This document shows, piece by piece, positions 21,568-22,640 of a DNA stretch of 64,000 bases. The stretch comes from an uncultured Pseudomonadota bacterium. Its GTDB lineage: Bacteria; Babelota; Babeliae; Babelales; CAIQNR01. The stretch lies in NCBI GenBank assembly GCA_964604015.1, contig CAZRXF010000012.1, positions 67,068-131,067 of the forward strand. The letters are read 5' to 3'. Below the pieces are notes generated by a model. That model was given only the letters and a program-made list of their open reading frames with translations. It ran no database searches and was not told the origin of the DNA. Numbering within the stretch: position 1 is the first letter of the stretch; each line of letters opens with the position of its first letter. The translations under genes were made by a program, and so were the position numbers.

Positions 21568-21741
21568 ATGATGATTAAGCAAATATATCTGGTCTGTGGT
21601 GTGGTGTTTGGTTTGAATTTTCTACTGCAGGCGCTCATCCATCACAATTTTTCCTTAAAAAACAAATATGCTCATTGCATCGCCTGCATAGTGGCGATGC
21701 GTGCGTACGAGACGGATGTTGAACCAATAATGAGCAGTTAA
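21568..21741 (+). CDS. possible 57-aa membrane peptide (below the ORF-track cutoff)
   Basis: My own translation: MMIKQIYLVCGVVFGLNFLLQALIHHNFSLKNKYAHCIACIVAMRAYETDVEPIMSS. AAGAAGGG lies about 8 nt upstream and there is one hydrophobic helix. Its stop overlaps the convergent gene's stop. Weak support. Confidence 0.25.
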   Translation: MMIKQIYLVCGVVFGLNFLLQALIHHNFSLKNKYAHCIACIVAMRAYETDVEPIMSS

Positions 21742-22640
21742 TCAAATAAGAGGGTTTCTAGATCGTCAAAAGCAAGTGTTCCTTGACCAGGTACAGGACT
21801 GAGCGGGGATGAAAATTGAGTGGCAGCTTCAACTAAGGCGATCGGTCCAGAAGGAACAGGCGGAAATATGTTCCCCCGAAATGGTCCAGATTCCCTACCA
21901 GAGTCACTAATAGTAGCATCGCTTCCATTTCCATCATCGTCAGAATCAGGCTGCTCAACAAAAGAAACGACCCTGCCTGCGGCCCGTCTCATTGCAAGTC
22001 GTGCACTCACTCTTGTGGGTGCCGCAAGAGTTTCGCCACGATCATCGCTTTGTGCTTGATCAGGTGTGCCTGCCAATTGCTCTTCAATGCTGTCGTCGTC
22101 GCTGTCGTCATCAGATTCTTCTGGATCGCTTTCTACAGGGGCGGGGCGTTTTTTTGTGGGGGCTAAAGAAACTGTGGATTTTTGGGGGGGGGCAGATGAA
22201 CCAGTTGCAGGGAGATGCCTTTGTGTTTTGCAGTGTGCCTGCAAGTGATCGGAACGTTTAAATGCGCGGCCACATTCACAGTAGTGAGGACGTAGCTCGA
22301 GGTGCTTATTGTTGTAATGCCGATCGCGGACATCTGATCGACTAAAAACTTCATCACAAGCAGAACATGCGTGGGGGCCTGGATGTGTGAGAAGAGAGTG
22401 AATATATTGCCGTTTGGACGTTATGTGCTCACCATCGAACGTTGCGTAAAATGTTTTTCCTGCATGGAGAAGCTCATAATAGCCTATATGCTGGCCTTTA
22501 TTGCCTTTTTCATGCTTTACAATACCCCTGTTTTGAAAGTCTTTGAATGAGGGTTTTGTGGATGCTGCTTTAAGAATTGAGCTGCTACCTACACCAACAG
22601 AAATAACTAAAAAAAGAAGTTGTATCAAGATTTTCTCCAC
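21738..22640 (-). CDS. signal-peptide protein with two eukaryote-type C2H2 zinc fingers and an acidic C-terminal half (candidate nucleomodulin)
   Basis: Signal-like MEKILIQLLFLVISVGVGSSS. Fingers HACSACDEVFSRSDVRDRHYNNKH and YCECGRAFKRSDHLQAHCKTQRH (nt about 22215..22370). TKKRP basic patch. DPEESDDDSDDDS and PDSDDDGNGSD acidic runs. C-terminal LAFDDLETLLFD. Confidence 0.8.
   Translation of the reverse strand: MEKILIQLLFLVISVGVGSSSILKAASTKPSFKDFQNRGIVKHEKGNKGQHIGYYELLHAGKTFYATFDGEHITSKRQYIHSLLTHPGPHACSACDEVFSRSDVRDRHYNNKHLELRPHYCECGRAFKRSDHLQAHCKTQRHLPATGSSAPPQKSTVSLAPTKKRPAPVESDPEESDDDSDDDSIEEQLAGTPDQAQSDDRGETLAAPTRVSARLAMRRAAGRVVSFVEQPDSDDDGNGSDATISDSGRESGPFRGNIFPPVPSGPIALVEAATQFSSPLSPVPGQGTLAFDDLETLLFD
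22184..22192 (-). other. G9 (coding-strand C9) homopolymer inside CDS 21738..22640
   Basis: tttGGGGGGGGGcag on the + strand. It encodes Ala150-Pro-Pro-Gln153 (GCC CCC CCC CAA). Longest G/C run I noticed in the window. Confidence 0.9.

Follow-up and report, generated by a model that had tools for sequence, protein, structure and literature searches.

A putative signal-peptide protein with eukaryote-like C2H2 zinc fingers in an uncultured Babelales bacterium, and its relatives

Two zinc-finger genes in a tRNA-Glu/galE island

We analysed a stretch of 64,000 nucleotides, here called the window, from an uncultured bacterium of the Babelales (contig CAZRXF010000012.1, assembly GCA_964604015.1), one of a clade that carries the label Pseudomonadota in its records. 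The gene of interest, the target, lies at 21738-22640 on the minus strand. An earlier note on this DNA had described its product as a signal-peptide protein with C2H2 zinc fingers, a basic patch, acidic runs and a C-terminus patterned like an activation motif. The open reading frame (ORF) of 300 amino acids was intact, and every element in that description was found where the note had placed it. The gene and its surroundings comprised the following features.

20846-20921: tRNA-Lys, just upstream of tRNA-Glu (tRNA search)
20925-21000, plus strand: tRNA-Glu(UUC), the conserved left border of the island (Rfam/tRNA search, alignment)
21001-24815, unstranded: species-specific island holding both finger genes, between tRNA-Glu and galE (homology breakpoints)
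21027-21041, unstranded: bidirectional terminator-like hairpin after tRNA-Glu, kept in the related contig L019 beside the orthologue
21738-22640, minus strand: target coding sequence, 300-residue signal-peptide C2H2 zinc-finger protein (intact ORF)
22649-22652, minus strand: Shine-Dalgarno sequence GGAG, 8 nt upstream of the target's GTG start (sequence)
22719-24158, minus strand: paralogous 479-residue signal-peptide protein with three C2H2 fingers (residues 231-322), basic clusters, an acidic tail and the same C-terminal motif (Pfam/alignment)
24201-24230, minus strand: sigma-70-like promoter match TTGAGA-18-TATATT, upstream of the 479-residue gene (consensus match only)

The target is a genuine bacterial gene. 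The window carried bacterial genes for MutL, PrmC, RNase HII, a LexA-like protein, S6, TruA, BamD, a GspE/PilB-type ATPase and TamB, and also for a PLD-family protein, RluD, MgtE, GalE, MurE, HisRS, an H+-pyrophosphatase and ribonucleotide reductase. The target protein was recovered from five independently assembled contigs of different samples, with every copy identical, and in the five assemblies bacterial genes flanked it on either side of the same contig. The eukaryote-like finger domain could suggest eukaryotic DNA that had been mis-assembled or mis-binned into a bacterial contig. However, the order MgtE, tRNAs, finger genes, galE recurred in independent assemblies of different samples on contigs of up to 326 kb, and orthologues stood beside the same tRNA-Glu in other genomes. 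These two observations effectively refuted the idea, which was further opposed by bacterial translation signals, a lack of introns and genome-typical G+C content at third codon positions (GC3); we give it a negligible probability. The GC3 of the target was 0.35 against a genome range of 0.33-0.49, and both GC and GC3 of the finger genes were typical of the genome. No signal of recent transfer was found in these two measures for the finger genes, and their genome-typical GC3 suggests that any acquisition was not recent.

The limits of the island were set by alignment with two relatives in GTDB, L005 and L007, which were found through their MgtE (85% and 82%). Homology ended exactly at the 3' end of tRNA-Glu and restarted at the galE ATG. 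Within the 3.8 kb between these points, the two finger genes were accompanied by a 57-residue ORF and by a 657-nt non-coding region that contains a very stable hairpin. The finger genes were separated by 78 nt, a gap in which no terminator-like site was found, and they may be co-transcribed. The same slot in relatives carried other cargo, namely an AAA_21 (AbiEii-like) ATPase, a GIY-YIG nuclease-domain protein and small secreted proteins (L020 1516-2692, L020 3441-4274, L021 392-1434). One further cargo protein in the relatives was left unannotated by the search and presumably resembles a DUF4143-type ATPase. Integration scars were sought at the island, and neither a direct repeat of the tRNA 3' end nor any other flanking att-like site was found. 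The Rfam search of the island region returned the two tRNAs only.

Two further elements of the island were recorded. The 57-residue hydrophobic ORF (21568-21741, plus strand) and the target are convergent, with a 4-nt overlap at the target's stop codon; public assemblies call this ORF as a gene, and no homologue or family was found for it. The 657-nt spacer between the promoter match and galE contains a near-perfect long hairpin of about 200 nt (24495-24691), with 16-nt perfect outer arms and 30-nt arms, a fold of -92.4 kcal/mol and a z-score of -10.6. It was single-copy in the window and had no Rfam match, and it could be an element resembling a miniature inverted-repeat transposable element or a structured RNA.

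Zinc fingers of the 300-residue protein

The protein was divided into segments by sequence, by alignment and by an AlphaFold2 (AF2) model of residues 27-146. The segments, one of which resembles a nuclear localization signal (NLS), are given from the N-terminus to the C-terminus, all on the minus strand.

22566-22640: signal-peptide-like N-terminus, residues 1-25, with n-region MEK, h-region ILIQLLFLVISVGVG and c-region SSSILKA (hydrophobicity)
22383-22562: conserved N-terminal module, residues 27-86, with KPSFKDFQNRG and a vestigial first finger (residues 64-86) lacking both cysteines (alignments, AF2)
22302-22373: C2H2 finger 1, HACSACDEVFSRSDVRDRHYNNKH, residues 90-113, C-x2-C-x12-H-x4-H, recognition helix RSDVRDR (sequence, phmmer, AF2, Foldseek)
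22281-22301: inter-finger linker LELRPHY, of the canonical 7 residues and containing Pro (sequence, KLF alignment)
22215-22283: C2H2 finger 2, YCECGRAFKRSDHLQAHCKTQRH, residues 120-142, C-x1-C-x12-H-x5-H, recognition helix RSDHLQA (sequence, phmmer, AF2, Foldseek)
22137-22160: basic patch PTKKRPAP, NLS-like but weak (sequence)
22080-22133: acidic Ser/Asp/Glu run ESDPEESDDDSDDDSIEE (sequence, charge)
21918-21950: second acidic run PDSDDDGNGSD (sequence, charge)
21741-21776: C-terminal hydrophobic-acidic motif LAFDDLETLLFD, conserved in the family, an instance of LSxxD(V/L)...(L/F)F (family comparison)

The sequence of the fingers agreed with most of the earlier note. Finger 1 had been called canonical, and this held for its spacing, which falls within C-x2-4-C-x12-H-x3-5-H, but not for its helix, which has Val at position +3 and Arg at +4 in place of the core Leu at +4. 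Finger 2 carried the RSDHL helix and the C-x1-C knuckle that the note had pointed out; this knuckle lies outside the same spacing pattern, and its H-x5-H is also unusual. The linker with its Pro was as described, with a canonical length of 7.

The note had proposed that the fingers be checked by hidden Markov model (HMM) and by structure. The Pfam zf-C2H2 model (PF00096) gave the target 15.0 bits, under the gathering cut-off of 25.2, and on this count the sequence support fell short. Against all PDB chains, however, phmmer matched residues 85-140 in every case, at E=5.3e-10 for the designed six-finger protein Aart and about 1e-7 for KLF4/5 and Zif268. An exhaustive phmmer search of 1.84 billion cluster representatives gave 1479 matches at E<=0.001, 72 of them at E<=1e-10, over residues ~85-140. 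Nearly all were long poly-finger proteins, as were 148 of the 150 matches listed. A loose C2H2 regular expression applied to all six-frame ORFs of the window and the related loci found two tandem matches in the target ORF only.

The AF2 model of residues 27-146 was built from a five-row alignment, since the single-sequence model of the full length had a mean confidence score (pLDDT) of 42.8 and was unusable. Its mean pLDDT was 81, and in it two beta-beta-alpha units (EE-EE-H twice) came after an N-terminal module of sheet and helix. The 50 best matches listed by Foldseek against the PDB were all C2H2 proteins, the top ones being C2H2-DNA complexes; KLF4 ZnF1-3 ranked first (probability 0.97, 90 columns, 37% identity). 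The two fingers superposed on those of ZNF524 with a root-mean-square deviation of 2.3 A over 56 columns. The Foldseek E-values were weak (at least 0.02), as expected for small, flexibly linked domains. Judged by sequence statistics and predicted structure, the fingers are real, yet imperfect, and the refuting outcome named in the note, fingers without support from HMM or structure, did not arise.

Pfam gave no TAL match in the target, and no internal repeats appeared in alignments. A word-indexed protein search with the target returned nothing beyond the target itself, and the same search with a profile of the two paralogues returned one match, the nematode KLF-like protein P0007. The tblastn search of the target found no match in 72,556 plasmids or 50,697 phages, and classical C2H2 arrays are rare in these bacterial mobile-element sets.

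The note had taken two such genes side by side as a small effector family, and BLASTP of the target and its 479-residue neighbour bore out the kinship, with 39-42% identity over the fingers (E=6e-8) and colinearity over three finger positions. The neighbour matched EGR1 at E=1e-13, and KLF5 and WT1 over three fingers; it retains all three, with the final His of the last finger changed to Tyr. When the two proteins were aligned with KLF4, Zif268 and P0007, both were colinear with the three-finger SP/KLF/EGR/WT1 layout. The target segment FYATFDGEHITSKRQYIHSLLTH (residues 64-86) aligned with finger 1 of that layout and has lost both cysteines, yet AF2 still predicted a hairpin and helix there. 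The N-terminal module as a whole aligned with the related protein P0020, with finger 1 of the neighbour and with KLF finger 1, and was modelled as a beta-hairpin and helix at pLDDT 79-93. On this colinear alignment and the Cys-less segment, the target is a two-finger derivative of a three-finger array whose first finger is vestigial.

Like the SP/KLF, EGR (Zif268) and WT1 arrays of eukaryotes, the target has tandem beta-beta-alpha fingers with 7-residue linkers, three-finger colinearity and recognition helices of the RSD type (FSRSD, FKRSDHLQAH), and its best structural matches were KLF4/5, Zif268 and WT1. Unlike them, it is bacterial and stands behind a putative Sec signal, its first finger is Cys-less, its spacings include H-x4-H, H-x5-H and C-x1-C, its linkers are not TGEKP, and its finger domain is not C-terminal, as a 157-residue acidic tail follows. 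SP/KLF proteins have three intact fingers (C-x4-C, C-x4-C, C-x2-C; H-x3-H) joined by TGE(K/R)P linkers at the extreme C-terminus. Membership of SP/KLF was ruled out by the Cys-less first finger, H-x4-H/H-x5-H, the linker LELRPHY and the 157-residue tail. The likeness, as the alignments have it, is one of descent or layout.

The N-terminus of the target had a 12-residue Kyte-Doolittle maximum of 2.97, among the highest in the window. By layout and hydrophobicity, the h-region spans 15 residues and SSSILKA/AS is a possible signal peptidase I site; residues 2-18 were helical in the single-sequence AF2 model with its overall pLDDT of 42.8. This hydrophobic segment might instead be a signal anchor. 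The protein could then act in or on the bacterium, as a membrane-anchored or periplasmic zinc-binding protein or as a bacterial regulator, since bacteria own C2H2-like regulators (Ros/MucR). Ros/MucR proteins share with the target a bacterial origin and Cys2His2 zinc coordination, but they are single-domain cytoplasmic regulators of a different fold and spacing (C-x2-C-x9-H-x3-4-H) without a signal peptide. The target has eukaryotic tandem fingers with 7-residue linkers and gave no Ros/MucR Pfam match at E<=1, and its h-region is only about 15 residues long. Furthermore, a DNA-binding array outside the cytoplasmic membrane would have no target there, and rapid divergence with presence/absence variation (described below) is unlike a housekeeping regulator. 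We therefore consider a purely bacterial role quite improbable.

A small family with a shared plan

The exhaustive search led to the first relative outside the window. P0020, a protein of 199 residues, was 45% identical over target residues 27-145 (E=4e-16) and was the sole non-generic match besides poly-finger proteins among the 150 listed. It is encoded on L019, a 972-nt contig from a much AT-richer relative (gene GC 29.5%), and its Pfam zf-C2H2 score was 21.4 bits. The same tRNA-Glu, with 55 identical nt, closes L019; the same terminator hairpin follows it, and the finger gene is convergent on it. This position makes P0020 the positional orthologue of the target. P0020 has the canonical knuckle CSQC, so the C-x1-C of the target is a derived single-residue deletion.

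Just past the predicted signal-peptide cleavage site, the target and P0020 share KPSFKDFQ(N/K)xG (window 22530-22562, minus strand; L019 263-295). The motif is near-identical in the two proteins despite an overall identity of about 38%, and it may serve in sorting or interaction. In L019 a hydrophobic signal-peptide-like stretch (164-232) lies in frame upstream of the annotated ATG of P0020, and no ATG, GTG or TTG occurs between this stretch and the preceding stop. The coverage of the contig was 2.3x, and either a non-canonical start or an error of assembly could explain the arrangement.

Two further related genomes, L020 and L021, were obtained by scanning JGI metagenomes with the last 40 nt of tRNA-Glu. 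The MgtE of L020 was 90% identical to that of the window, and the GalE of L021 was 94% identical to that of L007. Each contributed one member.

L020:354-1160: signal peptide and three C2H2 fingers, 268 residues; zf-C2H2 37.9 bits, above the 25.2 cut-off
L021:1420-2013: signal peptide and three C2H2 fingers, 197 residues; zf-C2H2 24.9 bits

The target, its 479-residue neighbour, P0020 and these two proteins form a small, fast-evolving family by sequence comparison, with five solid members in four uncultured genomes. The family proposed from the two neighbouring genes thus extends to related genomes. A family HMM built from the five proteins recovered exactly those five when run on the 1660 ORFs of all the loci collected, and the family profile matched PDB chains at E=7e-45 for the best and 7e-20 for Zif268, with WT1/KLF4 aligned over three fingers. 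All five members sit in the tRNA-Glu/galE island. The source studies of two related metagenome-assembled genomes give Lake Zurich and Polish wastewater/river as their habitat context. The JGI metagenome scan with back-translated family peptides found no relatives, and the N- and C-terminal parts of the target gave nothing by BLASTP and phmmer against the ORFs of the window and three related loci.

Two small L020 proteins with a signal peptide and finger-like motifs were rejected as members. The family HMM gave E=0.27 for L020:2168-2692 (174 residues) and no match for L020:1516-2082 (188 residues). One of the two has a CxC knuckle like that of the target.

The members diverged quickly. Within the clade, identity among finger proteins was 26-49%, compared with 72-90% for the housekeeping proteins MgtE, GalE and RluD, and this low identity is the pattern of rapid divergence and turnover expected of host-interaction genes. 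The note had named disruption of the gene in related genomes as a refutation of its reading. No disrupted copy was seen; the gene was absent from the locus in L005 and L007 and highly diverged in three others.

These losses and changes might also mark a eukaryotic gene that was acquired horizontally, is now decaying and no longer has a function. One finger has been lost, the second knuckle has a deletion, the core Leu of finger 1 is missing, the last His of the neighbour has become Tyr, and two relatives lack the gene. However, the ORF was intact and identical in five assemblies and retained its Shine-Dalgarno sequence and signal peptide, the N- and C-terminal motifs were shared with an orthologue whose identity elsewhere is about 38%, and five members have been maintained over four genomes. 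Decay without function is thus very improbable.

A common plan was found in all five members, consisting of a signal-peptide-like N-terminus, two or three fingers, at least one basic cluster, an acidic run and, in the last 30 residues, a C-terminal motif. A basic cluster always lay between the fingers and the acidic run (PTKKRP, RKRKLQRK, KKSK, RRSRTRK and KRKK in the five). In the target, the basic patch and the two acidic runs were found as the note had reported them, and the net charge of residues 144-300 was -17. The joint presence in every member of a DNA-binding domain, a basic patch, an acidic run and a hydrophobic-acidic end corresponds, at the level of sequence, to the classic layout of an activator.

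The C-terminal motif was LAFDDLETLLF, LSSQDVQSFF, LSTGDLPS...LF, LSSEDVGD...LF and LSLKDVEILF in the five proteins. A regular expression for it, applied to the last 40 residues of 334 stop-terminated frames of at least 80 residues, matched the five members and one spurious antisense frame, a test that is partly circular as the pattern was derived from the five sequences. By this measure the many secreted proteins of the clade do not carry the motif in general. The note had likened the C-terminus of the target to an activation motif. A moderately stringent regular expression of the nine-amino-acid transactivation domain (9aaTAD) type did match DDLETLLFD in the target (residues 292-300), EEVVQDFLF in the neighbour and TSLFDEFFL in P0020, but at 0.46 matches per 100 residues of window protein such a match is non-specific. 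Conservation of this end across the family is stronger evidence of function than the note had. From its sequence the motif fits an activation motif, a nuclear export signal (NES) or a translocation signal equally well.

The last of these options was weighed on its own. An export machine of the bacterium could recognize the motif much as it would a C-terminal signal of type IV or type I, and the acidic tail would then be a flexible spacer. It lies inside the last 30 residues of every member regardless of tail length, with a hydrophobic residue at -2 to -4 and acidic or small polar residues before it, and such C-termini resemble Dot/Icm-type signals. However, it was carried by the finger proteins only and by no other signal-peptide protein in about 130 kb of clade DNA, the members already bear putative Sec signals, and genes of a type IV or type I system were not seen in the available sequence. 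A translocation signal is accordingly an improbable explanation of the motif.

A possible host-directed role and other genes of the window

The reading we prefer, which we hold with confidence and doubt in equal measure, is that these proteins are a fast-evolving Sec-exported family, that their DNA-binding core derives from a captured three-finger array of eukaryotes, of the KLF/EGR/WT1 kind, and that they act as host-directed mimics of transcription factors. The protein would be exported by Sec and then released, possibly by a type II/type IV-pilus-like system or by vesicles; a GspE/PilB-type ATPase gene is present at 11278-13089 of the window, and Legionella is reported to export eukaryotic-like proteins via type II secretion (PMC6617341). 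The mature protein of about 30 kDa, which carries the basic patch, would enter the cytosol and then the nucleus of a eukaryotic host. There it would bind G-rich DNA through the RSDVRDR and RSDHLQA helices. In the zinc-finger recognition code RSDHLQA reads approximately NGG and RSDVRDR approximately GNG, from which a site of roughly 5'-NGG-GNG-3' would be predicted. The acidic tail and the C-terminal motif would engage or recruit a host factor, and the result would be a transcription-factor mimic with the same logic of DNA-binding domain, NLS and acidic domain as TAL effectors. The fuller version, in which the captured KLF/EGR array gave rise to diversifying Sec-exported mimics that reach the host nucleus, bind G-rich promoter elements and contact host co-regulators through the C-terminal motif, is put forward more tentatively.

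Several points weigh against a host-directed mimic. A Sec signal takes a protein no further than the periplasm, an oxidising compartment that does not favour Cys-based zinc sites. The target fingers are non-canonical (C-x1-C, H-x5-H, finger 1 without Leu at +4) and score under the Pfam cut-off, and two functional fingers alone may bind DNA with low affinity. The basic patch is weak, with three basic residues, and its position varies across the family. An export/translocation signal or an NES would account for the C-terminal motif just as well, and the 9aaTAD match is non-specific. Absence from the same locus in two relatives implies that the family is dispensable.

A host-directed effector need not be an activator. 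The protein might compete or repress at GC-box/EGR-type sites of the host, or bind host RNA or protein through its fingers; the acidic Ser/Asp runs could then be binders of histones or basic proteins, CK2 substrates or an intramolecular DNA mimic, and the motif an NES or a short linear motif. The evidence from the fingers and the family serves this account as well as the preferred one. FDDLETLLF agrees with the NES spacing class phi-xx-phi-xx-phi-x-phi no less than with an activation motif, the 9aaTAD expression discriminates poorly, and VVSFVEQPDSDDD (residues 223-236) resembles a SUMO-interaction motif with an acidic tract after it. In contrast, the classic activator layout has been kept together in all five members. 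Nothing computational discriminates activation from repression, and we rate a non-activating effector as unlikely.

The host-directed mimic can be compared with known systems. No DNA-binding module is commoner among eukaryotic transcription factors than tandem classical C2H2 fingers, which, to our knowledge, are very rare in bacteria. Known bacterial proteins of the host nucleus use TAL repeats, ankyrin repeats, SET domains or tandem acidic repeats. The TAL effectors of Xanthomonas and Ralstonia likewise combine a DNA-binding module with a basic NLS-like patch and an acidic C-terminal region, an analogy that would be functional; they differ in having 33-35-residue repeats with variable diresidues (RVD) rather than a borrowed zinc-finger array, and a type III rather than a Sec signal, and no sequence relationship exists. 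The class proposed for the target is that of the bacterial nucleomodulins (AnkA, Ehrlichia tandem repeat proteins (TRPs), LntA, OrfX), and acidic Ser-rich disorder occurs in Ehrlichia TRPs also. Known nucleomodulins are delivered by type I, III or IV systems, unlike the target with its putative Sec signal. Literature searches for bacterial C2H2 nucleomodulins found none, and a nucleomodulin review contains no classical C2H2 array and the term C2H2 zero times in its text (PMC7819608). MoHTR1, MoHTR2 and MoHTR3 of Magnaporthe oryzae are secreted C2H2 effectors that enter host nuclei and reprogram transcription (PMC7672089, PMC10189765). By description they resemble the target in being small, lineage-specific and rapidly evolving, with a signal peptide and a C2H2 finger near basic residues, but they have a single finger and are produced by a eukaryotic pathogen through the eukaryotic secretory pathway.

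If the host-directed reading is true, the target would give the nucleomodulins a means of reading DNA that is new among them, as a zinc-finger counterpart of TAL effectors, by a delivery route not previously linked to nucleomodulins. It would also represent a clear case of transfer from a eukaryote to a bacterium, after which the paralogues diversified in a hotspot linked to a tRNA gene. The recognition helices would predict target sequences and so give a testable handle on the host of the clade, and the LSxxD(V/L)...(L/F)F and KPSFKDFQ motifs offer concrete experimental targets. Such a protein would extend the host-nucleus-directed effectors and eukaryotic-like bacterial proteins and would not be categorically new.

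Other signal-peptide genes were frequent in the window. About half of its 44 ORFs of at least 150 residues had signal-peptide-like N-termini, many of them without a family assignment. A secretome-rich profile has been reported for Chromulinavorax, an intracellular parasite (PMC6561590), and that of the window is reminiscent of it. Two adjacent, overlapping paralogous signal-peptide genes (406 and 431 residues; 37304-39816, minus strand) contained M48 peptidase domains. An 811-residue signal-peptide protein (31717-34152, minus strand) has a proline-rich stretch similar to the formin FH1 region, a weak match of 27.9 bits that is below the cut-off, and it may be another eukaryote-like secreted protein. 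A 1348-residue Ala/Thr-rich signal-peptide protein (25883-29929, minus strand) had no Pfam or NCBIfam match. Relatives carry versions of it after galE (L007 9891-12080, 729 residues; L021 5178-8243, 1021 residues) with similar N-termini, and together these look like a length-variable family of surface or secreted proteins.

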